Source: Candidatus Tayloriibacteriota bacterium (GTDB taxonomy: Bacteria; Patescibacteriota; Minisyncoccia; Phycocordibacterales; PALSA-1337). Taken from it: a DNA stretch of 64,000 nt. A program made the position numbers and the translations under genes. The DNA lies in contig JBAXSG010000001.1 of the NCBI GenBank assembly GCA_037130865.1, positions 41,429 through 105,428 on the forward strand, in the 5' to 3' direction. The notes under the pieces were generated by a model that had not been told where the DNA came from, did no database searches, and was given only the letters and a program-made list of their open reading frames with translations. Shown here piece by piece: positions 2,191 to 63,920 of the stretch. Position 1 is the stretch's first letter; each line of letters begins with the position of its first letter.

Positions 2191-3273
2191 TCAATGACAT
2201 GAATTCGTCCACAACATTTGAGACTTTCCTGGTAATTGATTATATAACCTTATTTGTTGGCCTAGTTTATAACTATTTCCATGCGAAAGCATACCTAGAT
2301 AAGAGTTAAGCGTGGCCTCATATTTTTCGCTCTTTTCACTATCACCTTCACTATCTATAACTGCCTTTTTAGCCAACAAGTTTCTAAACATCCTCTTCTT
2401 GGTGGTTGTGCGTAAGACGCGATATTTAGGAAAATGAACCCAGCCAAGAAAATCTATACCGGAAGAAACAGTCTCTATCGATACTTTATCGGGATGAAGA
2501 TCCAGTCGCAATTCGCTCTGCAAAAAATCGCGAACTTTCGGGAGAAGACCGGCCAAAACACCTCGGTCATCATGCATAACCAAAAAATCATCGGCGTAGC
2601 GGATGTAATATCTCTGTTTCAGTTCATGTTTAATAAATTGATCCAATTCGTTTAAGTAAATATTTACCAGAAGTTGCGATGTAAGATTCCCAAGTGGCAG
2701 ACCTTTACCAAAACCGCCGGCACCACCAACAGCACCAACGACCTTACCACTAGAAAAACTGGAGATTATTTTCCAAAGCAACCCGAGAGTCGCATCATCC
2801 ACGGTATGCCTTCGTAAAACCCTCATCAAAACTTCATGATCAATAGAAGCGAAGCACTTGCGCACATCACATTTCAAGACCCAACAAGTTCGCCTGTGAT
2901 TTTTCGAAACTTTGCGTGCAAATTGTCTGAAACGATTTAGTGCTTTGTGAGTTCCTTTGAAATCTCTGCATGAATAAGAGTCAAAGATGAATCTCTTATC
3001 AAAAATCGGATACAAAATTCTGTATATAGAGTGATGCAATAATCTGTCACGAACAGTGGCTTTATGTATTATCCTAGTCTTAGGATCATTTATGATAAAA
3101 CTTTCATATAATCCGTGCGCATAGTTGCCATATAACAAATCTCTATATAAATCCGATATATTGCTAGACAGCTTTATTGTAAATTCAGCCACATCGTCTT
3201 TGCGGTTTTTGTCCACCACAAATTCCCGCCAGGCCTTGCATAAATTTTGAAAAGATATAATATCCTCGTACAT
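2191..3273 (-). CDS. diversity-generating retroelement (DGR) reverse transcriptase
   Basis: 360 aa. RT motifs are present: IINDPKTRIIHKATVRDRLLHHSIY (motifs 1/2), GLPLGNLTSQLLVNIYLNELD (motif 4 with the DGR-specific xGNLTSQ signature in place of group-II QGxxxSP) and YIRYADDFLVM (YADD catalytic motif 5). Size and N-terminus (ISFQNLCKAWREF) are typical of DGR RTs. Confidence 0.9.
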   Translation of the reverse strand: MYEDIISFQNLCKAWREFVVDKNRKDDVAEFTIKLSSNISDLYRDLLYGNYAHGLYESFIINDPKTRIIHKATVRDRLLHHSIYRILYPIFDKRFIFDSYSCRDFKGTHKALNRFRQFARKVSKNHRRTCWVLKCDVRKCFASIDHEVLMRVLRRHTVDDATLGLLWKIISSFSSGKVVGAVGGAGGFGKGLPLGNLTSQLLVNIYLNELDQFIKHELKQRYYIRYADDFLVMHDDRGVLAGLLPKVRDFLQSELRLDLHPDKVSIETVSSGIDFLGWVHFPKYRVLRTTTKKRMFRNLLAKKAVIDSEGDSEKSEKYEATLNSYLGMLSHGNSYKLGQQIRLYNQLPGKSQMLWTNSCH

Positions 3274-3332
3274 ATGAATTTAACTCAAAATCAAAATCTT
3301 TCTCATAGTACCCCCCCCGCAAAACGCCACAA

Positions 3333-3698
3333 GTGCTTTTGAAAGAGAAAGTGGTATACCGATCGTGGATATCGCTTCATAGGAATTTTCCGCGAATAGA
3401 AAGATTGGGTATTGGCCAAAAGATAGAGGCCTCTTTTCTGGATATTCTCGAATATACTTTCGTAGCAATGTATCTGGCATCTGACCAGAAAATTCTGATG
3501 CTCAGTAAAACCATAGCCAAACTAGATAAATTGAAATTTTTCATGCAAATAGCGTGGGAAAATAAACTCATACCAGAAGAAAAATATGCCCAGATATCGC
3601 TGGATCTTGAAGAGATTGGCCGCCAACTCGGCGGTTGGAGAAAGGGGTTGCAAACATCCGACCCAACGAAAACTCCCACCACAGGACAAGCCGCGTAG
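3333..3698 (+). CDS. avd: DGR accessory variability determinant (Avd-like four-helix bundle, 23S rRNA-IVS protein family)
   Basis: 121 aa from a GTG start. FPRIERLGIGQKIEASFLDILEYTFVA ... LEEIGRQLGGWRKGLQ aligns along its length with Bordetella phage bAvd (IPRKHGVAREMFLKCLLGQVELFIVA ... IAEVGRILGSWIARVNRKGQ). It lies between the RT and the TR but on the opposite strand. Confidence 0.72.
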   Translation: MLLKEKVVYRSWISLHRNFPRIERLGIGQKIEASFLDILEYTFVAMYLASDQKILMLSKTIAKLDKLKFFMQIAWENKLIPEEKYAQISLDLEEIGRQLGGWRKGLQTSDPTKTPTTGQAA

Positions 3699-3712
3699 TA
3701 GGAGAAATGGTA

Positions 3713-3830
3713 AGTTTCGGAACCACGATGCGATTCCTGTTCTCGGCGTTCCACACATTGTCGTTCAAGAAGCGGTTCACGTTCACCTTGGGAGCTCCAT
3801 CGGAGTCCAGATTCACGTTCGCGACGAAGA
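3713..3830 (-). repeat. DGR template repeat (TR)
   Basis: 118-nt segment homologous to 4163-4280. The conceptual translation VNLDSDGAPKVNVNRFLNDNVWNAENRNRIVVPKLT is rich in AAC/AAT codons. Every TR/VR difference falls on a minus-strand adenine of the TR. Confidence 0.85.
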
Positions 3831-4146
3831 AAATATGCAATAAACCATCCGTTACACCATCGGCCAAATCATGACCGATTGAATTTCATTTGGGACATAG
3901 AAGTCCGCCAGTTCATTGCACCAACTGACTATTTTTTGTTAATAGGAATACATCCACTCTCCTGCAAGACGTATCCGGCAGAATTCTCGAATGTATTTCT
4001 TCACAAGCGTGGCGCGGAAGCCTTGGCCGCCGCACATTCAGACTTGTGATGCTACTATAACAAAATCACCCCAACCTGTGGAGTGCCATCTTTTTCAGAC
4101 GGCACACCACAAGGGTCAGAGTGATTGATAGTCAGAGCGTCAAGCG

Positions 4147-4836
4147 CTAAGACTCGAGGGTCAGTTGCGGAACCACGATGCGACTCCTGCCCTCGGCGTA
4201 CCACACAATGCCGCACAAGAAGCGGTACACGTGCACCTTGGGAGCCCCATCGGAGTCCAGATCCACGCGCGCGACGAAGAGTTCACCATTGGCTTCGAAT
4301 AGGAAGAGCGTCCAGAAGTCTGTGCTGAGCCACTTGTGGTGGTTCTTCACAAACTGGATGATCTGAGGCTGTGGGAGGCACAGCTTTTTCGAATCCTCCG
4401 ACAAACTATCGAAGATTTTTTGATAGTTGCCGTTCTTGATGAGTTCATGAACAGCAACGTTCGTTTCCTTCGTCGGTTCGCTCTTCACATCGCAACCCCA
4501 GTTCTTGAAGTCGCAGTCGATGCCCCAGGTGAAAACTTTCTCTGCCCGAGCAATAGTCTCCTTGCCATCGGTTGGTTTGAGCGTGATGGTTTCCGCGCCC
4601 GAGATGAGCTTAAGGCAACCGCTCACGTTCTCGGTGATTTCTGCAAGCTTCTTCTTCACCGCTTCCATGACCACGGTTTTGAGTTCATTGCCGCGCTCCA
4701 CGAGTTTCTGAATGTTGTCACCGTTGATGACATCATTCTTTTCGAGGTCTTGGATCGCCTCCTCGGTGGCTTTACGAGCTGCCGATGTTGCGACTGTTAC
4801 GACTTGTTCTTTCTGACCAGATGTAATCGGTTTCAT
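4147..4836 (-). CDS. DGR target (variable) protein with a C-terminal VR-encoded ligand-binding segment
   Basis: 229 aa. The C-terminus ...FVARVDLDSDGAPKVHVYRFLCGIVWYAEGRSRIVVPQLTLES* is the diversified copy of the TR-encoded peptide (N->R/D/H/Y/C/I/Y/G/S, D->G, K->Q). There is no obvious N-terminal signal peptide. A ribosome-binding site AAAGGA lies 9 nt upstream of the ATG. Confidence 0.8.
   Translation of the reverse strand: MKPITSGQKEQVVTVATSAARKATEEAIQDLEKNDVINGDNIQKLVERGNELKTVVMEAVKKKLAEITENVSGCLKLISGAETITLKPTDGKETIARAEKVFTWGIDCDFKNWGCDVKSEPTKETNVAVHELIKNGNYQKIFDSLSEDSKKLCLPQPQIIQFVKNHHKWLSTDFWTLFLFEANGELFVARVDLDSDGAPKVHVYRFLCGIVWYAEGRSRIVVPQLTLES
4163..4280 (-). repeat. DGR variable repeat (VR) inside the 3-prime end of the target gene
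   Basis: Offset exactly 450 nt from the TR. There are 15 mismatches to the TR within 3731-3820 versus 4181-4270, all plus-strand T in the TR changed to C/A/G in the VR (adenine-specific on the coding strand). The 3-prime flank (4150-4170) is GC-rich and shows non-adenine mismatches to the TR (IMH versus IMH*-like). Confidence 0.85.
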
Positions 4837-5854: not shown

Positions 5855-7174
5855 TTATCTCACCTCCTTCCATGAAATCATCTTATATTGATTGCCCTGA
5901 CTTCCTCCTTGTTTGATTATTGGGAAATATGGAGGTGGATTGCCAGCCAGATTCACATCATAAGCGATATTACGAGCTGTATAAGCTGTACCGTCTGTAT
6001 AAGTAAATCCAAATTTCTTATTTGTGGCTATAGAACCATTTAGCGTAAGTGTCGAACGATGAGAATAATCTATACCATCTACTCTACAAGCAGATGGATA
6101 GAAAAATCTACCGACGCGACCATTTTCTGCTATAAGAGCTCCATCTATATGCAAAGAATCAGCGCTGACTAAACCGATATTTATATTCTCCTTGGCAATA
6201 AGTCCAAGAGCTTCGGTGTTATCGTATTTTATGTACGACAAATCTGAATTGACTGTTATATTATTTGCAGCAATCGTAAGTCTTGAGCCGTCTATAGTGC
6301 CGTCGACCCAAACATCATCATTGAAAAATAGAAGACCTTGAACTGGTAAAGTATATGTGCCGAGAAAACTCTGTGAGTGAATACTCCAAGTACCCCAACC
6401 GGCTGTAGCACTGGAACATCCAGCAGGTGCTGCGACCAACTCTGTCACTGTATATAAGGTAAATGTATCATCTTGATTTAAGGCGATATGATATCCGTAT
6501 GCAGGACTTTCATCGTATTGGGATCTTGCATAATAAGTACCACTACTACTTGCGACCGTCTGAAGTCCTTGAAAATCAGCACCAAGCCCAGAAAAATCCA
6601 CCACTGTGACCGGCGCTTGCTTACCAGCATAGAAAACACCTGATCCATCTACTGCAGTGGCGCTCGAGATAATATTATTTGCGATTCCATTGAAGTGGAT
6701 GACTCCATTTGCCATGACTGGTCCAGAGGTTTCAGTATCGAATGAAAATATAAGACCATCATTTGAGACTATGGCGTATTTTGTAAATGTTGGAAGACCG
6801 AACACAGCTTCGATAGTGCGAGAGATCTTCGAACTATTCAAATCCACACTCCCTTTCGAACTAACAGATATCTTGGTCGAACCAACGGTTGTCGGAGCTA
6901 CTTCTAGTACATAATTTCCGAGAATATTACCGTCTTTATCGAAAAAATCTTGCTTATATGTGTGTGTTTGATTATCACTGGTAATATTGGCGATATTTCC
7001 TCTAAACGAACTGAGACCAGCCTCTGCAATCTCAAAAGCTTGCTCGCTCTTGACCGCCATCCTTGCATTTACGATCAAGGTCGCGCCCCAATTTACCAAA
7101 CCAATAACCATAGTCACCGCTACAGCAGCAAAAACCAAAACACTTACGAGTATATCTCCTCGAATTGTCATCAT
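5855..7174 (-). CDS. type IV pilus minor pilin / tip-associated protein, PilX-like (large)
   Basis: The N-terminus MMTIRGDILVSVLVFAAVAVTMVIGL is a hydrophobic prepilin-like helix, followed by AVKSEQAFEIAEAGL (PilX_N-like). It is the last gene of the pilB-pilC-pilin operon. Start is taken at the internal ATG-ATG at 7174 and is uncertain. Confidence 0.55.
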   Translation of the reverse strand: MMTIRGDILVSVLVFAAVAVTMVIGLVNWGATLIVNARMAVKSEQAFEIAEAGLSSFRGNIANITSDNQTHTYKQDFFDKDGNILGNYVLEVAPTTVGSTKISVSSKGSVDLNSSKISRTIEAVFGLPTFTKYAIVSNDGLIFSFDTETSGPVMANGVIHFNGIANNIISSATAVDGSGVFYAGKQAPVTVVDFSGLGADFQGLQTVASSSGTYYARSQYDESPAYGYHIALNQDDTFTLYTVTELVAAPAGCSSATAGWGTWSIHSQSFLGTYTLPVQGLLFFNDDVWVDGTIDGSRLTIAANNITVNSDLSYIKYDNTEALGLIAKENINIGLVSADSLHIDGALIAENGRVGRFFYPSACRVDGIDYSHRSTLTLNGSIATNKKFGFTYTDGTAYTARNIAYDVNLAGNPPPYFPIIKQGGSQGNQYKMISWKEVR

Positions 7175-7217
7175 GTATGCAGTTTTTTGCGATGATATTA
7201 TCTTCATATATTTATAT

Positions 7218-7667
7218 TCATAAATTGCGTAGCTGTACAAAAGCAGAGTAAGAAGCAATCGTTATCCGTACAAAACGCACAGCCGATATGTCTGTAGTGG
7301 TGGCGTCGTTACCATCGAAGTATAAGAATGAAGCCACGGAATCATAAACTATAGGTTCTGGTATACCATCGGCATTTGTATCTGAGAAAAATCTGATCGT
7401 ACTAGACCCAATAGCCGTAAGTGGGTATGCCCCACTTGGTGGTGCTGACATCTGACGCATTTCTCTTGAAATCTTTTTCAAAACTATTTGTGAACTCTGT
7501 GATACATCAAATGATCCTGATATAGATTTCTGATATGAAAATATATTAACTTCAAAAGTTGTGATCGCTACCATAATTACAAGGAATATTGAAAGTGCGA
7601 CTAGGGTTTCAACTAGAGTCATACCTCTCGTATTTTGACTATTTTGATTTTTGGGATGAAATAACAT
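7218..7667 (-). CDS. type IV prepilin / pseudopilin
   Basis: Class III signal peptide ...NTRG|MTLVETLVALSIFLVIMVAI with Glu at +5. Confidence 0.75.
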   Translation of the reverse strand: MLFHPKNQNSQNTRGMTLVETLVALSIFLVIMVAITTFEVNIFSYQKSISGSFDVSQSSQIVLKKISREMRQMSAPPSGAYPLTAIGSSTIRFFSDTNADGIPEPIVYDSVASFLYFDGNDATTTDISAVRFVRITIASYSAFVQLRNL

Positions 7668-7672
7668 AATAT

Positions 7673-8122
7673 CTATATTGATGTCGGTGTCACCTCTCCA
7701 GTCAAAACAATCGGTGTGAAATTCTTACAAGACGCGCATGAAACACTTACTTCCACGAGTTTACTGACGATAGTACCTCCTGTAGAAAATGGCGATTGCG
7801 CATTTTCATCGCGAATATACAAAGCTACAGTAAATGGTACGCCTCCTCGAACTACCTCTTGTCTCGCAGACAAAATCCCATGTGGAATCCCATCGACTAA
7901 ACCAACATCTATATATGACATACCGCGCACTATCTCTAACTGCTCACTTGCCAGAGCCAAGGCCAACAATTTTGTTTGATTCGCTCGCGCTACTTGAAAT
8001 AAGCTGGTATAGGCACTATATGCGGCTATCGCCACCACTAGAAAAAGTGCTGAACCAACAACCACTTCTATGAGAGAGAAGCCTCTTCGTGAAATCTCCT
8101 GTTGTGAGTTTTTGTGTGACAT
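7673..8122 (-). CDS. type IV prepilin / pseudopilin
   Basis: ...EISRRG|FSLIEVVVGSALFLVVAIAAY prepilin leader and cleavage motif. The start at Met 8122 avoids overlap with pilC; the ORF track gives 8137. Confidence 0.75.
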   Translation of the reverse strand: MSHKNSQQEISRRGFSLIEVVVGSALFLVVAIAAYSAYTSLFQVARANQTKLLALALASEQLEIVRGMSYIDVGLVDGIPHGILSARQEVVRGGVPFTVALYIRDENAQSPFSTGGTIVSKLVEVSVSCASCKNFTPIVLTGEVTPTSI

Positions 8123-8126
8123 TGAA

Positions 8127-9359
8127 CTAGATAACATTCACAAGTGAATACATCGGTGAGATCATAGAGATAGCAAAGAAAGCAACAGCAGCACCTATAA
8201 AGACGATCAGGAATGGCTCAATAATCGTAGACATGTCCTTGGTCTTTTGTTCAACATCTTCTTCATAATAATGAGCCACACCTGATAGCATATCCGCAAC
8301 CTTACCAGTCTCTTCACCAACACTTAACATCTCTGCCAAGAAAACCGGATAAGTTTTCGTATTTTCAGAAAAAATCTTCGACATCGAGTCTCCTTTACTT
8401 ATGGCTGTACGAGCTTTTATCAAGACAGATCTGAAGTGGACGTTTTGCACAACAGATGCAGTTATCTCCAGAGAATCGACTACACCAACACCGGATTTCA
8501 TAAGCGAAGATAGAGTACGGGCGGTGCGAGCAGCATTGATCTCTTGGACCAGGGATCCTATAAGTGGTATTTTCAAAATCATCGCATGTACCACTGCCTT
8601 ACCAGATGCACGCTTCGACCATAGATATATAGTGCCGCCAACAATCACCAAGATTATAGCTACAAATAGGCCATGATAACGAATAGCGTCGCTGATATTC
8701 AGGAGAATTCTGGTCGAGATCGGTAAAGCTACATTCAAATCCAGGAAAGTCTTCATCAAGGTTGGTACCACGAATATAAACATGAGTACACCGACAATAA
8801 GCATCACTCCGATTATGACTGCTGGATACAACATAGCTCCGCGAATGCGTCTCTCCAATTCATAAGAGCTCTCTAGCTGCGCAGCCAATATATGTAGAGA
8901 CTCAGCCAGATTTCCTCCTTGTTCACCAGCATGAACCATCGATACAAAGAGTGGTGAAAATACTTTCGGATATGCTACCAATGCTTTTGCAAGAGTTTGC
9001 CCGCCATCAACACTGGTATTTATATCTACTAGGACCTTTTTCAAACTAGCATTTCTGGCCTCCTTGATGATTACCCCCAAAGCGCGTGAAAGTGGTAGTC
9101 CGGCTTCTAACATCGATCCCAAATTCCTGGCCATATTTATCTTTTCTATAGGTTTTACTCTGCCAGATAAGAAAGGTATGTTTATATTCAGTTTGAAGAA
9201 ATCAGCACCAAAGACAGAGTTCTTCTTTTCTTTTACAGAAATAACTTCAGTACCATCTTCGCGCAACATATGATAAAGATCATAACGATCTTTCGCTTCT
9301 TTCACAGAAGAATATACTTCGCCGCTAGATTTTTTGGCTTTGAAAATGAATTTGGACAT
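8127..9359 (-). CDS. pilC: type IV pilus assembly platform protein PilC (GspF family)
   Basis: 410-aa polytopic membrane protein with the two GspF repeats (e.g. ...GLPLSRALGV..., ...LLESGVPILEAL-type segments) and three TM regions. It sits immediately downstream of pilB. Confidence 0.88.
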   Translation of the reverse strand: MSKFIFKAKKSSGEVYSSVKEAKDRYDLYHMLREDGTEVISVKEKKNSVFGADFFKLNINIPFLSGRVKPIEKINMARNLGSMLEAGLPLSRALGVIIKEARNASLKKVLVDINTSVDGGQTLAKALVAYPKVFSPLFVSMVHAGEQGGNLAESLHILAAQLESSYELERRIRGAMLYPAVIIGVMLIVGVLMFIFVVPTLMKTFLDLNVALPISTRILLNISDAIRYHGLFVAIILVIVGGTIYLWSKRASGKAVVHAMILKIPLIGSLVQEINAARTARTLSSLMKSGVGVVDSLEITASVVQNVHFRSVLIKARTAISKGDSMSKIFSENTKTYPVFLAEMLSVGEETGKVADMLSGVAHYYEEDVEQKTKDMSTIIEPFLIVFIGAAVAFFAISMISPMYSLVNVI

Positions 9360-9360
9360 T

Positions 9361-11142
9361 TTATTCTGAAACTACACGAAAGACTTCTTCTATCGTCGTC
9401 AATCCTTGGACGCATTTGAATATTCCATCCTCGAGCATGGTAAGCATCCCCTCTTTTTTGGCTTGTGCCTCAATAACACCAGAAGTGGAATTCTTCATAA
9501 CCAAGTCTTTTATACTTGGAGTCATCTTCAAGACTTCATGAATTCCGACTCGACCCTTGAAGCCATCGTCTGCAGCAGTCGTGGCAGCAGCACCATCAGT
9601 AGTGCTAGAAGGTACGGCTTTGTATAGAGAAATGGTCTTCCACGAATCGTCTTTTTTGATTATATTCTCCTTTTTTAGAGCCTCTAGAACGCGTTCTGTA
9701 TCTACAGCTTTCATAAGTTGCGCCAATTGATCAGCCGAAAGTTTATATGCTTGCTTCGAGTCAGTGAGTTTTCTGACCAATCGTTGTCCTATGACTATGT
9801 CCAATGTTGACACCAATAAAAATGGTTCAACTTTCATATCAAGTAGTCTTGGAATAGCGCCTGCAGCGGAGTTTGTGTGCAAAGTAGAGAGAACTAAGTG
9901 ACCAGTCAAAGCTGCATTCACAGCCAAAGCGGCAGTTTCGTCGTCACGGATCTCACCAACCATAATAATATCCGGGTCTTGGCGTACTAGAGTACGGATA
10001 CCTTGAGCAAAAGAAAAACCTATCTCTGGACGGACTTGTGTCTGATTGACTCGAGGCAACTGATATTCTATAGGATCTTCAATGGTAGATATATTTACAT
10101 GTGGTGTATTCAATACATCGAGCATTGTATAGAGCGAAGTGGTCTTTCCGGAACCGGTCGGTCCTGTAGTAAGGATCATGCCTGTTGTGACATTGAGAGC
10201 GTGGTGAATACATTCCAGCGCTTCACCATGAAAATGCAAAGACTCCAGAGTAAAACCAGTGATACTTTCTCGAAGCAAGCGCATCACTATCTTTTCTCCA
10301 TAATATGTCGGCAATATAGAGACACGAAAAGCGACCTTTTCATTATTTAAATCTAGTTTGAAGCGACCGTCTTGTGGCAAACGCTTCTCATCCAACTTGA
10401 GTGCGGCCAAGACTTTTATACGTGCAGAAACTGATGGTCCAGCCTCTTTCGGTAAAACCATTGCGTCATGCAACATGCCATCTATTCGATATCTGACGAG
10501 GACTTGATCATCCATAGGCTCTATATGAATATCAGATGCGCCTTGTATAGCAGCGTGCTTGACCAAAGTGTCTACAATACGCACTACAGGCAAGTCTTCA
10601 GCGAGTTTCTTCAAATCTGTCTCCGAATCGGTGCTTCCGACACGACTTTTTGCCAAATCTTTCAGAGTAGCTGTATCCTTTTGCAAAATATCACCAAACT
10701 CTGCCTTCAAGCTCTTTTGGTATTGGACCAATGCTTCGCGCATAGAGTCCGTATCTGTGAGACGCGGTAAAATCTTTATATTTACTTTCTTTTTTATAAA
10801 ATCTATAGCCGACAAATCGTTCACATCCAACATAGCTACCTCAAGTCCAGCATCACTCTTCTTAAATGCTACGATATTGTGACCACGAGCAATCGGTTCT
10901 GGTATGAGAGACAGTATATCGAAGGGTATTTTTTCTCCTTTCAGGTCTACGAAAGAAATACCTATAACATAGGCTTGCATACGACGGAGATTGTCAGCTG
11001 TTATCCTGCCAGAAGATATCAGTACATCTCCAAGGCGTTTGCTGGAAGCTTCTGATTCTTTCTTGGCGTCGTCGAGATCAGTCTTGGATACAAGTCCTGA
11101 ATCAGAAATAAATTTATAGAGCTGGGCGTCTTCTGCGAACAT
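9361..11142 (-). CDS. pilB: type IV pilus assembly ATPase PilB (GspE family)
   Basis: 593 aa with an N-terminal GSPII-type domain, Walker A TGPTGSGKTTSLY, Asp box, Walker B DPDIIMVGEIRD and His box LVLSTLHTNSAAGAI. Confidence 0.9.
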   Translation of the reverse strand: MFAEDAQLYKFISDSGLVSKTDLDDAKKESEASSKRLGDVLISSGRITADNLRRMQAYVIGISFVDLKGEKIPFDILSLIPEPIARGHNIVAFKKSDAGLEVAMLDVNDLSAIDFIKKKVNIKILPRLTDTDSMREALVQYQKSLKAEFGDILQKDTATLKDLAKSRVGSTDSETDLKKLAEDLPVVRIVDTLVKHAAIQGASDIHIEPMDDQVLVRYRIDGMLHDAMVLPKEAGPSVSARIKVLAALKLDEKRLPQDGRFKLDLNNEKVAFRVSILPTYYGEKIVMRLLRESITGFTLESLHFHGEALECIHHALNVTTGMILTTGPTGSGKTTSLYTMLDVLNTPHVNISTIEDPIEYQLPRVNQTQVRPEIGFSFAQGIRTLVRQDPDIIMVGEIRDDETAALAVNAALTGHLVLSTLHTNSAAGAIPRLLDMKVEPFLLVSTLDIVIGQRLVRKLTDSKQAYKLSADQLAQLMKAVDTERVLEALKKENIIKKDDSWKTISLYKAVPSSTTDGAAATTAADDGFKGRVGIHEVLKMTPSIKDLVMKNSTSGVIEAQAKKEGMLTMLEDGIFKCVQGLTTIEEVFRVVSE

Positions 11143-11226: not shown

Positions 11227-11937
11227 TTAGTTTTTGCTGTTAGCGCTGCTAGCGACGGTTTTCTCCGGATTGTTTCGGAGATGTAGTATTCCACCGGGGA
11301 AACCACTCGTCCTAAGGACTTCCTGCAGGGGATAGTAGTCCACCTGAAGGCCCTTACCTTCTCTGCCGCTACGGCGATAGATCGTCACGATTGAGACTGG
11401 TGGACAATTGTGTTCGATTTGTCCATTCGTTACGAAGAAGTGGTGTTCTCCCTCATCGAAGTCTGCCAACTCCCCGCCCTTTTCGCTCTGACGATTCAAT
11501 CCCTGAAGACCTAACTCAATCTGAATCGGGCTGAATATCGCCTTAAGCTCTATAAGCTTTCCGGCGAACTTCATCAGAGCTTCCTCATAAGCTCGCCGAG
11601 AAAAGAGTTCAGACGATGCATCGAGACCCAACGCCAACGAGGCTTTGTACAGCAGATCTGGATCTTCGGCCTTGTTGACCATCTGACAAGTTGTCCAGAG
11701 GCCATCACCCGACGGCGGCACTATCTTGGCCATACCAGAAAAGAATTCCTGGTCGATCCTGAACATGGCTTGCTTCGCTGTGTTTTTGCTACAGAAGCAT
11801 GCCTCCGAGACTATAGATGGACATTGTTGAACCTGGATACCGGTCTCTATAAATTTCACCGGACCCGAACAACTCACTGTTGGTTGATTAGTCTGTTTAA
11901 CTTGAGCGACCATTTTTCCTCCTCGTGGTATTGCCAC
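11227..11937 (-). CDS. hypothetical Cys-containing protein on an elevated-GC segment
   Basis: 236-aa ORF with C-x-C and HNCPP motifs and no family recognised. It is co-oriented with, and downstream of, the LeuD-like gene. Confidence 0.35.
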   Translation of the reverse strand: MAIPRGGKMVAQVKQTNQPTVSCSGPVKFIETGIQVQQCPSIVSEACFCSKNTAKQAMFRIDQEFFSGMAKIVPPSGDGLWTTCQMVNKAEDPDLLYKASLALGLDASSELFSRRAYEEALMKFAGKLIELKAIFSPIQIELGLQGLNRQSEKGGELADFDEGEHHFFVTNGQIEHNCPPVSIVTIYRRSGREGKGLQVDYYPLQEVLRTSGFPGGILHLRNNPEKTVASSANSKN

Positions 11938-11961: not shown

Positions 11962-12402
11962 TTATGCGATAGAGTAAGGGATATCATATCCACCACCACT
12001 ACCGTTGCTGATGAAGATTCTCTGTGTCTTTGTGTCAATCTTCAACATGTTCAATGCCCTCGGTATACCACTGACAATGTCGCAGTGATATGAGGGTGGC
12101 AGTACAACACATACAAGACCTAGACTCTTAACACTCGCACGGAAACCATCATCGAAAGACGGTGCAATCACTACCTTGATACCGTAATTCTTGATCTGGC
12201 TCGCGGCGAATGCTCTACTTGGCCCTTGACCGAAACCATTCTCCACAACCATGATTACGGCCGGGGTAACTTGATATCTCTCATCGAGCTTATGGGGGTC
12301 TTTACCCAACCGCTCAAGTTTATCGGTACATACATCACCAGCGCTTATATTTTCGCCTGGCCAATGAAATGCCCTACCTTTAATGATCTGATTATCTGCC
12401 AC
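11962..12402 (-). CDS. aconitase-swivel-domain protein (LeuD-like small subunit)
   Basis: IKGRAFHWPGENISAGDV...VIMVVENGFGQGPSRAFAASQIKNYGIKVVIAPSFDDGFRASVKSLGLVCVVL matches the LeuD/aconitase C-terminal pattern (GxNFGCGSSRExA...GI.xVIAxSFADIF...GLLPI). Confidence 0.55.
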   Translation of the reverse strand: MADNQIIKGRAFHWPGENISAGDVCTDKLERLGKDPHKLDERYQVTPAVIMVVENGFGQGPSRAFAASQIKNYGIKVVIAPSFDDGFRASVKSLGLVCVVLPPSYHCDIVSGIPRALNMLKIDTKTQRIFISNGSGGGYDIPYSIA

Positions 12403-34134: not shown

Positions 34135-35685
34135 ATGAGCATTGCTCAATCATATAGCGCACAACTAGTTGGTCTAGATGCTGAAATAATAACTATCGAG
34201 GTAGATATCTCAAATGGTCTACACTCTTTTTCTGTTATTGGACTCGGTGATCGCTCAGTAGAAGAGTCGAAAGATAGAGTTTCGGCTGCAATAAAAAATA
34301 CTGGTTATACATCTCCTAAACAAAAGAATCAAAAACTGGTTGTTTCTCTGGCGCCAGCCGATGTCCGAAAAGAGGGGCCAGCTTTTGACCTAGCTATTGC
34401 GATCGGTTATCTGGTTGCATCATCGGAAATAGAGTGTGGTCCAAAATACGAAGTGACAAAAAACATATTTCTCGGCGAGCTTTCCTTGGAGGGAAATATC
34501 CGTCGAGTCAGCGGTATCCTGCCTATGCTTTTTTGTGCTCTAAGAAATGGCTTCGGACATGCTTTCATACCAGCAGAAAATGCTCGTGAAGCTTCGTTAG
34601 TACAGGGTATAGATGTGTATGCAGTTTCTACACTGGCAGAGGTGATAGGTCATATAACTGGAAAAAAGACGCTGCAAAAGATTTGTATGGATGATCTTTT
34701 CTCTCAGACCATCTTATTCCAAGACAAATCTACACATCCGGACATATCATTGGTCCGAGGCAATGAAGTCGCAAAAAGAGGATTGGAAATAGCGGCCGCC
34801 GGTGGGCACAATATGCTTATGTATGGATTGCCGGGTACTGGTAAAACTATGCTAGCTCAAAGTCTTCCAACTATATTACCTCCACTTTCTTATGAACAAT
34901 CAATCGAGGTAACAAGTATACATTCGGCGGCGCGCGCCCTAACGTCTGAGTTCATAACCACACCGCCATTTCGCGCGCCGCACCATACCGCCTCTCATAT
35001 CTCTATTATTGGCGGTGGCACTTTTCCAAAACCTGGAGAAATAACTTTGGCCCATCGTGGTGTCATTTTTCTAGACGAATTCCCAGAATTTGACCGACAA
35101 ACTATCGAAGCATTGCGACAACCACTCGAGGAAAGACGAATCACGGTGTCTAGAGCAAAAGGAAGTCTGACATTTCCTGCACAGACTATTTTATTGGCTG
35201 CGATGAACTCTTGTCCTTGTGGAAAACCGAAAAAGAAAGGCTGTATGTGTAGTGAATCAATGATCAGAAACTATTGGCGCAAAATATCTGGACCGATTAT
35301 GGACCGTATCGACATTTGGGTGCACATAGACTCTGTAGAATACAAAAAGTTGTCCGCTCCACCAGAAGAACATAGATGGAGCTCAGCAATCATGGCTGCG
35401 AGAGTACGCAAAGCGCGTGCAAAACAACAAGAACGCTTCAAACAGATCGGCCGACCAATCTATTTCAATAGCGAGATGGGTGCTGCTGATATTGAAAAAG
35501 TCATCGTTATGGATGATCGCGCACGATTTGCATTGGAGACTTCAGCACGTAAGTTCAATCTCTCTGGCCGCGCCTTTCACCGCATAATAAAAGTCGCCAG
35601 GACCATCGCTGATCTGGACGATATAGAAATAATCACACAAAAACAAATACTGGAGGCATTACAATTCAGAAAAAAGAGTACTTAG
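34135..35685 (+). CDS. comM: Mg-chelatase-like AAA+ protein YifB/ComM
   Basis: Lon-protease-like N-terminal domain, Walker A LMYGLPGTGKTMLAQSLPTILPPLS, Walker B VIFLDEFPEF and a C-terminal Mg-chelatase domain. Confidence 0.88.
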   Translation: MSIAQSYSAQLVGLDAEIITIEVDISNGLHSFSVIGLGDRSVEESKDRVSAAIKNTGYTSPKQKNQKLVVSLAPADVRKEGPAFDLAIAIGYLVASSEIECGPKYEVTKNIFLGELSLEGNIRRVSGILPMLFCALRNGFGHAFIPAENAREASLVQGIDVYAVSTLAEVIGHITGKKTLQKICMDDLFSQTILFQDKSTHPDISLVRGNEVAKRGLEIAAAGGHNMLMYGLPGTGKTMLAQSLPTILPPLSYEQSIEVTSIHSAARALTSEFITTPPFRAPHHTASHISIIGGGTFPKPGEITLAHRGVIFLDEFPEFDRQTIEALRQPLEERRITVSRAKGSLTFPAQTILLAAMNSCPCGKPKKKGCMCSESMIRNYWRKISGPIMDRIDIWVHIDSVEYKKLSAPPEEHRWSSAIMAARVRKARAKQQERFKQIGRPIYFNSEMGAADIEKVIVMDDRARFALETSARKFNLSGRAFHRIIKVARTIADLDDIEIITQKQILEALQFRKKST

Positions 35686-38971: not shown

Positions 38972-39853
38972 GTGTATGATGTAGAAATGAGCCCTGAAAA
39001 ATCCCTAAAACCAAAAAAATCCCTCGGTCAACACTTTCTACATTCGCCGTCGGCGCTAAAAAAGATTGTTGAGGCCGCGAAGATAATGCCAGATGAAACC
39101 GTACTCGAAATAGGCCCGGGAACTGGTATTTTGACTGAAGCACTTCTCGCAACTGGCGCGCAAGTGGTGGCGATAGAGAAAGATGCACGCGCATACGAAG
39201 TTTTGTCACAAAAATTCTCAAAAGAGCTCGCTAGTAAACAGTTAAAACTGATTATCGGCGATATTTTGGAAGAAAATTTTGAAAAACTTGGTGCCGAAGA
39301 TATCAAAGAAGGGAAATATGCCCTCGTCGCGAATATTCCTTACTACATAACTGGCGCGATTCTAGAAAAATTCCTCGAACACACACCGAGACCGAACCGT
39401 ATGATCTTATTGGTGCAAAAAGAAGTGGCTGAACGCATCATCGCTCGTGATAAAAAAGAAAGCGTACTTTCTATATCTGTAAAAGCCTTTGGTACGCCAC
39501 ATATAGTGGCGATTGTACCGCGTGGAGCATTTGTACCAGCACCAAATGTAGACTCCGCAATACTGGAGATAACGGATATATCCGATGTGCGTTTCAACCC
39601 AAATATTGAAAAAATGGCTCTAAATAGCCAAAAAACGCTTGCAATACCTAGATTTTTCAAGATCGTCAAAGCTGGTTTCGCACACAAAAGAAAGTTTGCG
39701 CGCAGAAATCTAGAAAATTTGGCTGGAACAGAAGAATTCATAACTCGTGAAAAAATCGAGGAGATTTGGCAGAAAATAGGACTGGATGAAAAAATCAGGC
39801 CTGAAGATATGACTGTAAAAAACTGGTTAGAAATATTGACATTGAGTTGTTAA
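38972..39853 (+). CDS. rsmA: 16S rRNA (adenine1518/1519-N6)-dimethyltransferase
   Basis: KKSLGQHFLHSPSALKKIVEAA...VLEIGPGTGILTEALL...ANIPYYIT, KsgA/RsmA motifs. Confidence 0.9.
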   Translation: MYDVEMSPEKSLKPKKSLGQHFLHSPSALKKIVEAAKIMPDETVLEIGPGTGILTEALLATGAQVVAIEKDARAYEVLSQKFSKELASKQLKLIIGDILEENFEKLGAEDIKEGKYALVANIPYYITGAILEKFLEHTPRPNRMILLVQKEVAERIIARDKKESVLSISVKAFGTPHIVAIVPRGAFVPAPNVDSAILEITDISDVRFNPNIEKMALNSQKTLAIPRFFKIVKAGFAHKRKFARRNLENLAGTEEFITREKIEEIWQKIGLDEKIRPEDMTVKNWLEILTLSC

Positions 39854-39903
39854 CAGTTTGCTTAGTTAGACATCGCGCAATCTGCTATAATCTACAAGGT
39901 ATT

Positions 39904-40773
39904 ATGCCAATTATCCCAAAGAGCAGGCAGACTATTGTAGTATCTGTAATATGCCTTTTAATCGTGGTGGCTACTCTAGTCATCGTCTATGGTTTTCCTG
40001 GAAATAATCCAGCAAATAACGGTGTCGTAGCCGATGCAACCGCCTCTCTCGCTTCACAAAACATGTCCACGAGTACTGATTGGCAGAAATCCTTCTACGA
40101 GGTCTCTGGTACATCTACAAAACCATATGGTGCAGATCTTGCTGCCACCACAAACTCTGGATCATCTACGGAAATATTGACGAATACAGATATTTTGGGA
40201 AGGAATTTTCTCACAGTGTATTCACAGATGCATCAAGCTGGTATAGAAAGTGATTCGCAAACAGTAAGCACAGTCGCAAACAAGCTTGCATCAAACAGTC
40301 TGGCTGGTGTGGGTTCTCCAAATATATATTATGGCAATGACATAAAAATCGTGGCGGATTCTTCTGCTAATGCTGGTACATACGCAAAATCTCTAAGTGT
40401 TATCTTGTCTGGATCTATACCTTCTGAAAATGAAGCCGTCATCGCAGACAATGCTTTTCAGAAAAATGACATGACTATATTAAAAAAAATAGATCCTGTG
40501 ATAGCAGGGTATAATAAGACCATAAAATCTCTGTTGGCCACACCGGTCCCTCAGTCTGCCAGCCAGTATCATATCGATCTTGTAAATGGTTTCAGTATGC
40601 AAGTCTACAATGCGACCGCTTTGCGACATGTAGACAGTGACCCTGTTCTTAGTCTTGCAGCGATAGGTCAAGTGATTCCAGCACTTCAGCGTATCAGTAC
40701 GGCACTGGTGAATCTACAGAGATATTTCAATACAAGTGGTGTGACTTTCATAGCTCCTACACCTGGCCAATAA
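39904..40773 (+). CDS. hypothetical secreted / membrane-anchored protein
   Basis: N-terminal TM/signal (TIVVSVICLLIVVATLVIVYG), Ser/Thr-rich. No family recognised. Confidence 0.4.
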   Translation: MPIIPKSRQTIVVSVICLLIVVATLVIVYGFPGNNPANNGVVADATASLASQNMSTSTDWQKSFYEVSGTSTKPYGADLAATTNSGSSTEILTNTDILGRNFLTVYSQMHQAGIESDSQTVSTVANKLASNSLAGVGSPNIYYGNDIKIVADSSANAGTYAKSLSVILSGSIPSENEAVIADNAFQKNDMTILKKIDPVIAGYNKTIKSLLATPVPQSASQYHIDLVNGFSMQVYNATALRHVDSDPVLSLAAIGQVIPALQRISTALVNLQRYFNTSGVTFIAPTPGQ

Positions 40774-40792
40774 TTTTCAATAATTAAAATCT

Positions 40793-42424
40793 ATGAAAAT
40801 AAATGAATCATATAAAAAAATAGTCAGCATCATACTCTTAACAGCTATAGTGTTTTCTTATGTACAAGTGGTGGCGCCACAAAGAGCAAGTGCTGTTGCA
40901 GGAATAGCAGATGTAACCGTCGTCACTGTAGCCGCAAATACTAGCCCTACCGAGCTACAAAACACTGTAAACTCTTGGATGGAGCGCATAAAAAACTTCA
41001 TCTTGGACCGTCTAGCAACAGCTATAGCAAACGCTATCTTGAACCAGATGACCGCCAGTGTTATAAACTGGATAAATAATGGCTTCCAAGGTAGCCCTTC
41101 ATTTATGACAAACCCTGAAGATTTTTTCCTGGATGCTGCCGACCAAGTAACTGGTCAATTCATCGCTGAAACAGGTATTATGTCGCAACTATGTTCGCCG
41201 TTTAGTATAAATATCCGCGCAAACCTGGCTCTTGGTAGCGCACAATCTTCTCGTGGAAGTTACGCTTGTACTTTGAGAACAGTTGTAGCAAATGCAAAAA
41301 ATATCCCAAACAACATAACTCTAAATGGACAAAACATTCAAGGATTTATGGATGGAGATTTCCGACAAGGTGGTTGGGTTTCATTCAACTCAATAATGAT
41401 GGACCCACAAAACGATCCATTCTTCGCATATCATTCAGCTGTTGGTGATATAAGAGCAGCCGTTACCACAAAGAAAAATGCTATCAATCTAGATCTGTCT
41501 GCTGGTGCTGGTTTCATGTCATTTAAAGTGTGTGATCCTGTACCTGTTGGCGGAACATATATAGATGCCTCTGGTGCAAAAGCGGTAAACACTCCTGCTC
41601 CTGCAGATCTTGTTGGTCCTCCAGCTCCTCCTCCAAAAAATTGTCACACGGAAACACCTGGATCCGCTATTTCTAACAGCTTGACTAAGACTCTTGGTGT
41701 GCCGTTCGACAAGCTTACACTGGCAAACAATATAAACGCTATTATAGACGCCTTGGTCTCACAGATGGTCATGCAGGTGCTTGGTGGTGGTTTGCGTGCT
41801 ATGAGTAGTGGTAGTAGTGGTGGTCCTTCATACACTAGTCAGATATACGATACATCATTGAAAGACAATTCAAATTCCGCATACTCCGTATATGGCCAGA
41901 GTAGCGATCCAATATTGGGAATTGTTCAGGAATATAAATCAAACTACGATACAGCAGTCTCGTTGATGCAGGGCGGTCAGGCAAACTTGAATTCTGCAAA
42001 GGCCTGTCTTGCAGGAAAGTATAGTGGTTTGTCTTCGGTGATAAGCAATCCGAAAATGACCCAGCAAGATAAGGCCAAGTATCAGAACATTATGAGTGAT
42101 ATACAATCACGAATAAACTCTATAGACAGTAGCTTGCAAAACCAGGTAAGCGTGCTTCTAAGCACATTTGGCCGCGGCGCAGCAGATGGTTATGCCAAGC
42201 TTGCTCAAGCACAAAATGTAAACCAGGTGCTTATATCAAACAGTTACGATGGTACCGCCAGTGCTACTGCAGCCGCTTCCATATCAGCAGAGCTACAAGC
42301 AGGAAAGCTTGATACCTCGAGAACTGACCTGCAAAATGCTCAAAATACAGCAAGTAGTCTAAACTCTGGTGCGGATTCTTATAACCAATTCTGTAATAGT
42401 ATATCTGTGCCAGTCATACAATAA
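40793..42424 (+). CDS. hypothetical secreted protein, first gene of the type IV secretion-like cluster
   Basis: Signal peptide MKINESYKKIVSIILLTAIVFSYVQVVAPQRASA. 543 aa. Pro-rich linker PAPADLVGPPAPPP. Confidence 0.4.
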   Translation: MKINESYKKIVSIILLTAIVFSYVQVVAPQRASAVAGIADVTVVTVAANTSPTELQNTVNSWMERIKNFILDRLATAIANAILNQMTASVINWINNGFQGSPSFMTNPEDFFLDAADQVTGQFIAETGIMSQLCSPFSINIRANLALGSAQSSRGSYACTLRTVVANAKNIPNNITLNGQNIQGFMDGDFRQGGWVSFNSIMMDPQNDPFFAYHSAVGDIRAAVTTKKNAINLDLSAGAGFMSFKVCDPVPVGGTYIDASGAKAVNTPAPADLVGPPAPPPKNCHTETPGSAISNSLTKTLGVPFDKLTLANNINAIIDALVSQMVMQVLGGGLRAMSSGSSGGPSYTSQIYDTSLKDNSNSAYSVYGQSSDPILGIVQEYKSNYDTAVSLMQGGQANLNSAKACLAGKYSGLSSVISNPKMTQQDKAKYQNIMSDIQSRINSIDSSLQNQVSVLLSTFGRGAADGYAKLAQAQNVNQVLISNSYDGTASATAAASISAELQAGKLDTSRTDLQNAQNTASSLNSGADSYNQFCNSISVPVIQ

Positions 42425-42426
42425 AA

Positions 42427-44301: not shown

Positions 44302-44319
44302 GATAAAAAATAGTGGCAA

Positions 44320-44982
44320 ATGAACTTACAAAAAGACACCAACATGAATACTGACCAACACCCAATACAACTGATAAAAGAGCGTTTTGCTGAACTTCCA
44401 CCAGAAGTGCAAGCCGCTGTCACTGCATCTGACTTGAAAGATAAGATGCGTGCGATTGGTGATAAATACAACCTCCTTCTAGACAAACAGAGTGATCTCC
44501 AGAGGTTAATCTTGATAGTTATGTTGGGACTTATGTCATCGAGTGAATTCGTGCCATCTCTTATGGAAGAATTGAAGATAAGCCGCACTGAAGCAAATTT
44601 GATAGCCAATGATGTCAGTGAACAGATATTTGCCCCTATCCGTACACATTTGAGAGAATGGGAAGAGCAAACAGAAACAGATCTCGAGCGCCTTGGAGAC
44701 TTCACTATAGACCATACCCAGACGGCGGGGAATGAGTCTCTATCTACAGAAGACAATGCTGGCAACGGTATGCTTGTGGAAAGACGACCTACAATTCTAG
44801 ATAGTATAGAGAACCCTCAACCAGCCAAGAGGACATTTGTCACAAAAACATCAGAAACACGTACAGAGCCACTCACTGACCATCTCTTGAGCACTCCTGT
44901 CACAGTTCCACCACAAAGGATTGTACAGCCAAGCACACAGACCCAGAAGTCAGCAGACCCCTACAAGGAATCAATCGCTTAG
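44320..44982 (+). CDS. hypothetical acidic protein
   Basis: 220 aa with no motifs, inside the T4SS-like cluster. Confidence 0.35.
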   Translation: MNLQKDTNMNTDQHPIQLIKERFAELPPEVQAAVTASDLKDKMRAIGDKYNLLLDKQSDLQRLILIVMLGLMSSSEFVPSLMEELKISRTEANLIANDVSEQIFAPIRTHLREWEEQTETDLERLGDFTIDHTQTAGNESLSTEDNAGNGMLVERRPTILDSIENPQPAKRTFVTKTSETRTEPLTDHLLSTPVTVPPQRIVQPSTQTQKSADPYKESIA

Positions 44983-44994
44983 TGTGATATAATT

Positions 44995-45447
44995 GTGACA
45001 ATGCGCTTTCAAGTTCCTCAATTTATCGAGATTGAAGATAAGATATTTGGCCCATTGACGCTGAAGCAGTTTATTTATTTGGCTGGTGGTGGTGGGTTGT
45101 CTTTCATGGTGTACATATTCCTTAACAACCTTTTCTTGTCTGCGTTACCGATCTTGATCATAGTGGGTATATCTGGATTGTTGGCATTCTTCAAGATAAA
45201 CAATAAACCCCTAATAAACGTTATCGAATCTGCTTACAAATATTATGTCGGCGACAAGCTCTATATCTGGAAGAAGGTGGCCAATCCACAACCAACAATA
45301 GAGCCGGCGACTACCAATGATATGAAAAATTATGCCTCCATCATGGTCCCAAAGATGTCAAATAGTAAATTGAAGGATCTAACCTGGAGTTTGGATGTGC
45401 AAGATAGTAGATATGCAAATAAAAACTCAAAGAGTAACAACCGCTAA
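44995..45447 (+). CDS. small two-TM membrane protein (VirB3/PrgI-like position)
   Basis: 150 aa. Hydrophobic segments LAGGGGLSFMVYIFLNNLFLSALPILIIVGISGLLAFF. It is located two genes upstream of the VirB4-like gene. Confidence 0.35.
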   Translation: MTMRFQVPQFIEIEDKIFGPLTLKQFIYLAGGGGLSFMVYIFLNNLFLSALPILIIVGISGLLAFFKINNKPLINVIESAYKYYVGDKLYIWKKVANPQPTIEPATTNDMKNYASIMVPKMSNSKLKDLTWSLDVQDSRYANKNSKSNNR

Positions 45448-62630: not shown

Positions 62631-63920
62631 TTAATTTTCCAAAGAGATCACACGCCTAAGTTCATCCATAGAAGTAACACCGGCCAATACTTTCGTCACA
62701 CCATCTTGTTTCATTGTTAGAAGACCTTGGCCTTTTGCGGCATCCCAGATTTCTCGATCACTTGAATTTTGTTGTACCACAGCCTCTATTTCACGAGTCA
62801 TTAATATGGCTTCATATATACCTATTCTGCCTTTGTAACCAGTTTTATTACATCGATCACAACCAACCGGAACATATATTTTCGAACGATCTGTTGGAAC
62901 AAGTGTTTTATCTTCTATGCCAGCAACAGTATCTTCGATCTCTTTTTTATCTTGTACCAAATCAATAGAGACTTCCTTTTTGCAATACTTACAAAGTCGG
63001 CGCACAAGGCGTTGTGCCATAGAAACACGCAAAGCCGAAGGAATAATTTTTGGATTTACACCAAGCTCAGCTAAACGAGGGAATGTTCCAGCGGCATCAT
63101 TTGTGTGGATGGTAGAGAAAACCAAGTGACCAGTAAGAGCTGAGTTGATGGCAATATCTGCAGTTTCATTGTCACGAATTTCACCGATCATAATAATATC
63201 TGGATCTTGGCGGACAGCAGCACGTAAACCATCGACGAATGTATAACCTTTGTCGTTGACCTGTGTCTGGACGATTCCAGGCAAGTGGTACTCAATAGGA
63301 TCTTCAATAGTGATAATCTTCACATCGCTTGTGTGGATCTTTTTCAGAAAGGCATAGAGAGTGGTGGTTTTTCCAGAACCAGTTGGTCCTGTAGTAAGAG
63401 TCATACCATCTGGGCGTTGTATTTCTTCAAGCAAGATTTTCAACAGTTTCGGATATATACCAAGCTCTTCAAGAGGAACACTGATAGATTTTGGATTCAA
63501 GAGACGCATAACAACCGACTCATCATATGCTCCTGGTAAAATAGAAACACGAACCTCAATATCACCGATAGGTAGATGAATACTAAAGCGGCCATCTTGC
63601 GAAGATTTCTTCACATTTAACTTCATACCAGAAATAAGTTTGATACGAGAGAGGAGCAGGGCATAGGTTTCATTGTCGAAACGAGTGACATCTTGCAAGA
63701 CACCATCTAGACGATAACGCAGACGAACATATTCTTCCTCTGGCTCCAAATGCATATCTGACGCCTCTAGTGCCAGTGCACCCGCCACCACAACTTCCAA
63801 AATTCGAGAAACACGGTAACTCTTTTTCATTGTTATGGTATTTTCCAGTATAGATATTACAGTTGGAAGACTTTTTGCCTTTTCCACAATGACAGATATT
63901 TCCTCGGCTGATATTTGCAA
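62631..63920 (-). CDS. short GspE/PilB-family secretion ATPase (second copy, lacks N-terminal GSPII domains)
   Basis: Walker A LTTGPTGSGKTTTLYA, Asp box, Walker B DPDIIMIGEIRD, His box LVFSTIHTNDAAGTF and a tetracysteine CKYC...GCDRC zinc motif (PilB/GspE-like, not PilT-like). 429 aa. Confidence 0.85.
   Translation of the reverse strand: MQISAEEISVIVEKAKSLPTVISILENTITMKKSYRVSRILEVVVAGALALEASDMHLEPEEEYVRLRYRLDGVLQDVTRFDNETYALLLSRIKLISGMKLNVKKSSQDGRFSIHLPIGDIEVRVSILPGAYDESVVMRLLNPKSISVPLEELGIYPKLLKILLEEIQRPDGMTLTTGPTGSGKTTTLYAFLKKIHTSDVKIITIEDPIEYHLPGIVQTQVNDKGYTFVDGLRAAVRQDPDIIMIGEIRDNETADIAINSALTGHLVFSTIHTNDAAGTFPRLAELGVNPKIIPSALRVSMAQRLVRRLCKYCKKEVSIDLVQDKKEIEDTVAGIEDKTLVPTDRSKIYVPVGCDRCNKTGYKGRIGIYEAILMTREIEAVVQQNSSDREIWDAAKGQGLLTMKQDGVTKVLAGVTSMDELRRVISLEN

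Follow-up and report, generated by a model that had tools for sequence, protein, structure and literature searches.

A probable type IV pilus core operon with a predicted ComZ-type tip pilin in Candidatus Taylorbacteria

The stretch of DNA considered here, hereafter the window, comprises 64 kilobases (kb) of the genome of an uncultured, ultrasmall Candidatus Taylorbacteria bacterium (Patescibacteria/Paceibacteria), from position 41,429 to 105,428 of contig JBAXSG010000001.1. Positions 5855 to 11142 of the window carry five genes that, in our view, constitute the core operon of a type IV filament, i.e., a type IV pilus, and encode its motor, its platform and a three-protein priming/tip complex; we give this interpretation a probability of approximately 0.8. 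The major fibre subunit is not encoded by this operon.

Gene content and conserved order of the operon

The five genes are the following (lengths in amino acids, aa; a slash marks the putative cleavage site of each leader):

9361..11142, minus strand: PilB-type extension ATPase, 593 aa, with an MshEN-type N-terminal domain (NCBI MEI6396516.1, 'GspE/PulE family protein')
8127..9359, minus strand: PilC/GspF-type inner-membrane platform protein, 410 aa, with two T2SSF repeats
7673..8137, minus strand: minor prepilin 1 (pilin 1), probably GspI/PilV/ComGE-like, 154 aa, leader ...SRRG/FSLIE
7218..7667, minus strand: minor prepilin 2 (pilin 2), GspJ/PilW-like, 149 aa, leader ...NTRG/MTLVE
5855..7207, minus strand: PilX/GspK/ComZ-type tip pilin (the large protein), 450 aa, with a predicted pilin domain and β-solenoid

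All these open reading frames (ORFs) are present and co-oriented in the minus strand, as in the original prediction, save for the start of the large gene. Its product had been described as a protein of 440 aa with a pilin-like hydrophobic N-terminus, starting at 7174; the hydrophobic helix stands, but that start is located 33 nucleotides (nt) too far downstream. The ATG at 7207, which gives a protein of 450 aa with the leader MKIISSQKTAYMMTIRG, is preferred because the closest homologues share an MKI or MNI leader, and because the NCBI entry MEI6396512.1, a 'hypothetical protein' from Candidatus Taylorbacteria, is identical at 450 aa. Along the operon, pilB and pilC are separated by 1 nt, pilC overlaps the gene of pilin 1 by 11 nt, and the two following gaps are of 5 and 10 nt.

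Relatives of the large protein are present in at least 469 GTDB species genomes, and the 80 best loci among them were taken as a sample of synteny, in which ORFs were called and matched to the proteins of the window. As far as the contigs reach, the order PilB (approx. 582 aa), PilC (approx. 404 aa), pilin 1, pilin 2, large protein, TIM (triose-phosphate isomerase) and PGK (phosphoglycerate kinase) was found in 80 of the 80 loci, and therefore chance is excluded as an explanation for the order of the five genes. The median identity to the orthologues in these loci, which were chosen by their similarity to the large protein, was 39% for the large protein, 46% for PilC, 47% for TIM and 51% for PGK. 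Upstream of the operon, nusA is located on the opposite strand, in the relatives and in the window alike. Two additional ORFs, 11227-11937 (no family match) and 11962-12402 (Aconitase_C-like), were considered as possible parts of the operon and rejected, given that they are not conserved beside it in the relatives. A scan of promoters and terminators between 4800 and 12700 gave counts no higher than those of shuffled controls, and thus the operon boundaries are undefined.

The original prediction of an extension ATPase and a platform protein is sustained by Pfam, since the ATPase matches the whole T2SSE profile (E value of 2.8e-117) and MshEN (9.5e-11), and PilC matches T2SSF in two repeats (3.2e-58). 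The grouping of the ATPase with PilB rather than with GspE is a near tie; the NCBIfam model type_IV_pilB scored 499.4 bits over its full length versus 484.8 for GspE, and neither reached its cut-off (675 and 630, respectively). For PilC, GspF scored 314 bits versus 268 for the PilC models, all of them under their cut-offs. The models of the ComG competence system were not satisfied (ComGA, 244 bits with a cut-off of 300; ComGB, 147 bits with a cut-off of 240); the ATPase of the operon shows a full PilB-like N-terminal region. The tetracysteine zinc motif CxxC...CxxC is absent after QRLVR in this protein, where the corresponding positions are T..K / A..S-like, and both CxxC pairs are also gone in 59 of 61 PilB orthologues from Paceibacteria.

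Predicted folds of the three pilin-like proteins

The N-terminal region of the large protein, ...TIRG/DILVSVLVFAAVAVT, shows a glycine followed by a hydrophobic helix of 20 residues, with serine instead of glutamate at position +5. A PilX-like motif had been attributed to this protein; no match to Pfam PilX_N was obtained for the window protein at E values up to 1, but the motif is detectable in its family, with matches in 7 of 39 homologues at the same limit (homologue P0017 reaches 26.0 bits with PilX_N, PF14341, for a cut-off of 25.5). A word-indexed search with the large protein retrieved 256 matches, nearly all of them unnamed or 'hypothetical protein' from metagenome bins of Patescibacteria/Parcubacteria, and an exhaustive search retrieved 385 clusters (50% identity) at E values up to 1e-30 and 1862 at up to 1e-3.

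The structure prediction that had been suggested for this gene product yielded a high-confidence model of a GspK-like pilin domain with a bulky β-solenoid. The AlphaFold2 model, built from an alignment of 120 sequences, has a mean predicted local distance difference test (pLDDT) of 92.8 and a predicted template modelling score (pTM) of 0.87; it comprises an N-terminal helix of 60 residues, four β-strands (residues 71-126), the short strands of a β-solenoid (approx. 135-404, with a helix at 195-210), and a last strand (431-437). When the model was compared with the PDB using Foldseek, three chains of ComZ from Thermus thermophilus were the only matches with E values below 1e-3 (1.2e-10 to 4.0e-10), and ComZ was the best PDB match by two methods, with 18% identity over 230 residues. 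GspK/XcpX were matched by the pilin part of the model, and ice-binding proteins (e.g., 3WP9, 7BWX, 6BG8) by its solenoid; tapirins (8.2-8.8), XcpX (8.5) and GspI-class pseudopilins (approx. 7.5) were found at lower ranks. The model predicts a solenoid-bearing pilin of the ComZ type, and we infer that it occupies the tip. The family DUF4900 was considered as a bridge to ComZ and dropped; one homologue gave a sub-threshold match (21.3 bits versus 29.4, over 64 residues), and the content of this Pfam family was not established. Two cysteines of the large protein, C253 and C363 (439-aa numbering), are also nearly invariant and may be joined by a disulfide.

Previous work on ComZ revealed a GspK-like pilin domain with a solenoid, similar to that of ice-binding proteins, inserted in its sheet, and too bulky to be accommodated except at the tip; ComZ binds DNA and its GspI-like neighbour PilA2, and the locus is required for transformation (PMC6561018). 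ComZ is also devoid of Glu5 and it is not predicted to be a substrate of PilD. According to the model, the window protein resembles ComZ (PDB 6QVI) in the N-terminal helix without Glu5, the GspK-like sheet, and the solenoid placed before the last pilin strand; likewise, the genes pilA2-pilA3-comZ of Thermus follow the same small-small-large order as the trio of the window (PMC6561018). On the other hand, the crystallised chains of 6QVI have approx. 500-520 aa versus 450 aa in the window protein, and the helix at 195-210 lies in a part of the solenoid where ComZ has long loops, such a helix being assigned to ice-binding proteins (PMC6561018). The trio of the window also differs in that it sits in one operon with pilB-pilC, with no secretin in the window. 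Ice-binding proteins (DUF3494 fold) are secreted and free, without a pilin domain or sequence similarity to the window protein, and there is no reason to expect ice binding by the latter, a conclusion likewise reached for ComZ by its authors (PMC6561018).

A β-solenoid is inserted in all cyanobacterial PilX proteins, from competence and motility pili, and it was proposed that these proteins cap or plug the tip in organisms without PilY1, i.e., a 'plug' role (bioRxiv 10.64898/2026.02.12.705559). The order of secondary-structure elements in the window model fits that of cyanobacterial PilX; however, cyanobacteria belong to a different phylum, and are diderms that possess a secretin and two specialised sets of PilX/PilV, whereas one set is present in the window. 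Closer to the organism studied here, it was shown experimentally that the Saccharibacteria TM7x has type IV pili with large PilX tip pilins that bear accessory domains and have no predicted PilD signal (PMC11623550). PilX1 and PilX2 of TM7x, from the same superphylum, are the largest pilins of their loci and proposed tip proteins; instead of an inserted solenoid, they bear C-terminal accessory domains, namely a β-jelly-roll and a seven-bladed β-propeller (PMC11623550).

Regarding the small pilins, both pilin 1 (...SRRG/FSLIEVVV) and pilin 2 (...NTRG/MTLVETLV) are above the Pfam N_methyl gathering score (for pilin 1, 26.2 bits with a cut-off of 21.2). Their class III leaders, which had been recognized before, remained valid after the start codons were re-examined, and a six-frame scan of the 64 kb for the class III motif and a hydrophobic stretch detected these two as the only canonical class III leaders. 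The predicted structure of pilin 2 shows a globular fold of the GspJ type, its best match being TTHA1219, a type IV-like pilin from Thermus, and its homologues have weak matches to the cyanobacterial pseudopilin HpsC. Pilin 1 is probably GspI/PilV/ComGE-like, as suggested by the similarity of its N-terminal helix and the position of its gene. Its matches to ComGE, GspI and GspJ are sub-threshold and cover the N-terminal 50 residues only; within its family, sub-threshold N-terminal matches to these models were found in 32, 30 and 28 of 37 members, respectively, and hhalign aligned 55 helix residues with GspI from E. coli. When GspG, GspH, GspI, GspJ and GspK of E. coli K-12 were compared by hhalign, the N-terminal helix alone was aligned and the classes were not discriminated, and sequence searches of the PDB with both small pilins and a pilin 2 profile gave nothing, or generic N-terminal pilin helices only. 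Towards its end (residues approx. 134-137, VSCASCKNF), the pilin module of pilin 1 also bears a CxxC pair that is nearly invariant.

Given the GspJ-like fold of pilin 2 and the GspI/ComGE-like N-terminal helix of pilin 1, neither of the small pilins would be the major pilin, in agreement with the earlier suggestion that the latter should be sought elsewhere. We consider the three pilin genes as an I-J-K-type priming/tip set without a major pilin, an assignment that is firm for pilin 2 and the large protein and that we infer for pilin 1. As in the GspI-J-K and PilV-W-X sets, the trio is encoded by three consecutive genes, small-medium-large, in the order of gspI-J-K from E. coli, with a GspJ-like middle product and a last product that is GspK-like by fold and lacks Glu5. 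The differences with these sets are that the operon has no GspH/FimU-like fourth member, that a β-solenoid is borne by the large subunit, as opposed to the helical insertion of GspK, and that the sequence matches to them are all sub-threshold and limited to the N-terminal helix. The proposed order pilB-pilC-prepilin-prepilin-PilX-like, with the last product at the tip, is supported by the leaders, the predicted fold and the synteny.

The pilins of the window are also remarkable for their reduced size. Pilin 1 has 154 aa versus 581-654 aa in 80 loci, and it ends exactly where an extra module starts in its orthologues. In the 80 relatives with data (L001-L083, e.g., L002 7519-9282) the protein has approx. 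600 aa, with a pilin module of 145 aa followed by CarboxypepD_reg/Big-like domains. This C-terminal module of approx. 440 aa, with CarboxypepD_reg-like (CarboxypepD_reg/Big-like, immunoglobulin-like) domains, is present in most orthologues and was lost in the lineage of the window. Pilin 2 has 149 aa versus approx. 205 aa in most orthologues, with an internal gap of approx. 45 residues, and the large protein, as compared with most relatives, is devoid of an insertion of approx. 50 residues. A pseudogene reading of the short pilins 1 and 2 was rejected, given that the nearest relatives (57-60% identity) have similarly short intact genes, with a pilin 1 of 138-141 aa and a likewise short pilin 2. 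The trimming of the minor pilins looks like a lineage-specific streamlining and not like decay; in itself, the operon of the window is a standard one, slightly reduced as compared with its relatives, and the result is modest in this respect.

Nature of the filament and ligand of its tip

The GspE/GspF-like pair and the GspI/J/K-like trio could alternatively form a type II secretion-like pseudopilus, i.e., a piston that exports proteins and makes no long pilus. The fact that GspF is the best model for PilC and that GspE nearly equals PilB for the ATPase would agree with this alternative, as would the labels given by NCBI/JGI to several members ('type II secretion system protein', 'PulJ' or 'PulG') and the closer similarity of all three pilins to the pseudopilins of type II secretion systems than to the pilins of type IV pili. 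Nevertheless, the minor pilins of the pili from Thermus and Saccharibacteria are likewise similar to those pseudopilins, and therefore this resemblance cannot discriminate between the two systems. Moreover, Pfam scans detected no secretin domain in any ORF of the window of at least 400 aa and no match to GspC, GspL or GspM among the scanned ORFs, and in one relative a PilM gene is located 8 kb from the operon. Patescibacteria are not known to have an outer membrane, and thus a type II secretion system would have nothing to cross; pili are visible in cryo-tomograms of Patescibacteria (TM7x). A secretion pseudopilus is accordingly regarded as very unlikely. It should be stressed that the type IV pilus is preferred on account of the absence of a secretin and of GspC/L/M in the window together with what is known of Patescibacteria, and not because of the ATPase.

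Several observations weigh against a type IV pilus with a ComZ-type tip. Among all the sizeable ORFs of the window, Pfam revealed no Peptidase_A24 prepilin peptidase, major pilin, PilM/N/O or ATPase of PilT length; PilD and the major pilin, which the original prediction recommended to locate, were among the components sought in these 64 kb and not found, an absence that reflects only the limits of the window, which is part of a contig of 138 kb. In one relative, PilM and a further pilin are located 6-8 kb from the operon, and therefore the rest of the pilus machinery is probably dispersed in the genome. The scores of the ATPase are nearly equal on the PilB and GspE models, and PilC scores better on GspF. 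The large protein itself has no match in Pfam or NCBIfam, and sequence searches (phmmer, 120-sequence profile) matched neither ComZ, absent at E values up to 10, nor any other PDB entry; the link with ComZ is structural only, with a Z score barely above that of ice-binding proteins, and all the folds in the pilin trio are predictions. In the large protein, the putative cleavage glycine is followed by an aspartate, a residue not usually found there in substrates of PilD. Pilin 1 is taken as GspI-like solely from the similarity of its N-terminal helix and the position of its gene. Finally, the fact that the three minor pilins are shorter than in most relatives could mean a reduced function.

Modelled on the established scheme for GspI-J-K and PilV-W-X, the assembly of this type IV pilus could be envisaged as follows. 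The three pilin-like proteins would be inserted in the membrane via their N-terminal helices, and a prepilin peptidase encoded elsewhere would cut the two small prepilins after the glycine of their class III leaders. On PilC, the helices of the three proteins would form a bundle similar to that of the GspI-J-K trimer, and the large protein would take the topmost position, as suggested by its lack of Glu5 and its bulky β-solenoid. The addition of the major pilin beneath, driven by PilB, would push the complex outward, with the solenoid as distal cap and contact surface. Gene content, leaders, predicted folds and synteny are the observations behind this scheme; trimer formation, cleavage of the prepilins and location at the tip would follow from them.

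DNA capture, adhesion to a host surface, and a mainly structural 'plug' are roughly equally likely as roles of the solenoid. The large protein had originally been proposed as a tip or adhesin; the tip is supported by the predicted fold, with ComZ as best match. In a competence pilus, the solenoid would bind extracellular double-stranded DNA and retraction would deliver it to ComEC, to feed recombination and nucleotide salvage in an organism whose biosynthesis is minimal. This function is suggested by the closest structure being ComZ, a DNA-binding protein from a transformation locus, and by Thermus TTHA1219 as the best match of pilin 2; in addition, the conserved block of the relatives includes RecJ and a ComEC-type gene (DUF4131 and Competence domains) 3-8 kb downstream, a ComM-like gene is present at 34135-35685 of the window, and the conservation of the tip protein, near housekeeping level, suits an invariant ligand. 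However, all the cyanobacterial PilX proteins, from both kinds of pili, carry the same solenoid, and therefore the fold does not diagnose DNA binding; the two lysines implicated in DNA binding by ComZ could not be mapped on the model, the window contains no ComEC, ComEA or DprA, and TM7x mutants of one of its two pili were transformed normally (PMC11623550). We consider DNA uptake as a tentative proposal, with the odds somewhat against it.

The same reserve applies to a host-attachment pilus, in which the solenoid, as an adhesin, would recognise a polymer on the surface of the cell that the epibiont lives on, a possible but doubtful role. In Saccharibacteria, binding to the host is mediated by large minor pilins of the PilX type that bear accessory domains (PMC11623550), the solenoid resembles tapirins, referred to as 'possible adhesins' in their PDB entries, and the immunoglobulin-like CarboxypepD_reg module of approx. 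440 aa on pilin 1 of most relatives is typical of surface binding. This module, however, was lost in the lineage of the window, and the solenoid protein shows strong conservation in numerous lineages of Paceibacteria with presumably different hosts, whereas host-specific adhesins usually diverge fast.

Neighbouring elements and significance

Directly downstream of the pilus operon, between tpiA and pgk, a diversity-generating retroelement is located at 2191-4836, with the following parts:

2191-3273, minus strand: reverse transcriptase, part of the 2191-4836 cassette
3333-3698, plus strand: Avd-like gene, part of the 2191-4836 cassette
3709-3830: template repeat, 122 nt
4159-4280: variable repeat, 122 nt, within the target gene 4147-4836 (minus strand)

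The template and variable repeats share 87% identity over 122 nt, with all but one of their 16 mismatches (15) located at adenines of the template on the coding strand. Cassettes homologous to this one, with reverse transcriptase, Avd and target, are found in the TIM-PGK gap of one relative (L007) and after the large pilin gene of another (L041); in a third one (L077) the target homologue is found alone, between the large pilin gene and TIM. The placement of the retroelement could reflect a hot spot or a functional link with the pilus.

A second ATPase is encoded outside of the operon:

62631..63920, minus strand: second PilB/GspE-family ATPase, 429 aa, Pfam T2SSE

This GspE-like ATPase, already noticed in the original prediction, is borne out by its match to T2SSE (E value of 6.4e-117). 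It is 43% identical to the PilB of the operon over 407 residues, and it scored 439 bits with the NCBIfam GspE model and 426 with PilB, both under their cut-offs; it has no N-terminal MshEN domain and retains the CxxC...CxxC motif. No platform or pilin gene is adjacent to it; it adjoins ruvB (61266-62318), beyond which, in the downstream direction, a YebC-family gene (60165-60695) and ruvC (59699-60202) are located.

The type IV secretion system-like cluster mentioned before was also recovered, with a VirB4/TraG-like ATPase (46117-47931) and a protein of 485 aa with a T4SS_pilin domain (49583-51040). This cluster probably corresponds to a run of co-oriented genes in the plus strand, 39847-52356, directly upstream of yidC, dnaA and dnaN; many of its products have no Pfam match (308, 543, 624, 220, 215, 352 and 429 aa). 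The gene at 34135-35685, also in the plus strand, encodes a protein with ChlI, Mg_chelatase and Mg_chelatase_C domains, the architecture of the YifB/ComM family, which is linked to natural transformation in some bacteria; it provides weak context for a role in competence.

A central part in host attachment and DNA uptake by Patescibacteria is ascribed to type IV pili, and their tip proteins are unannotated outside Saccharibacteria. Pili in Patescibacteria were already known, as were the solenoid tip pilins of Thermus and cyanobacteria; no report of the latter in Patescibacteria was found, nor, in the literature searched, any publication that mentions ComZ along with Patescibacteria or Parcubacteria. 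The finding would not surprise a specialist, but it can help annotation and offers a target for experiments. A family so far annotated as 'hypothetical' gains a confident structural identity, predicted from the model, as a GspK-like pilin with a ComZ-type solenoid; the protein is a candidate for the site at which the pilus of Paceibacteria makes contact, and the architecture would be extended to a third major lineage. A broader proposal, which we regard as rather improbable, is that the solenoid PilX/ComZ tip pilin is an ancient part of the priming complex common to Deinococcota, Cyanobacteria and Patescibacteria, and that in Paceibacteria it would act as a DNA receptor encoded in a single, near-universally conserved core operon, with the retroelement hinting at a hypervariable partner. 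If this were true, the receptor would capture extracellular DNA for these nucleotide-dependent, ultrasmall cells.

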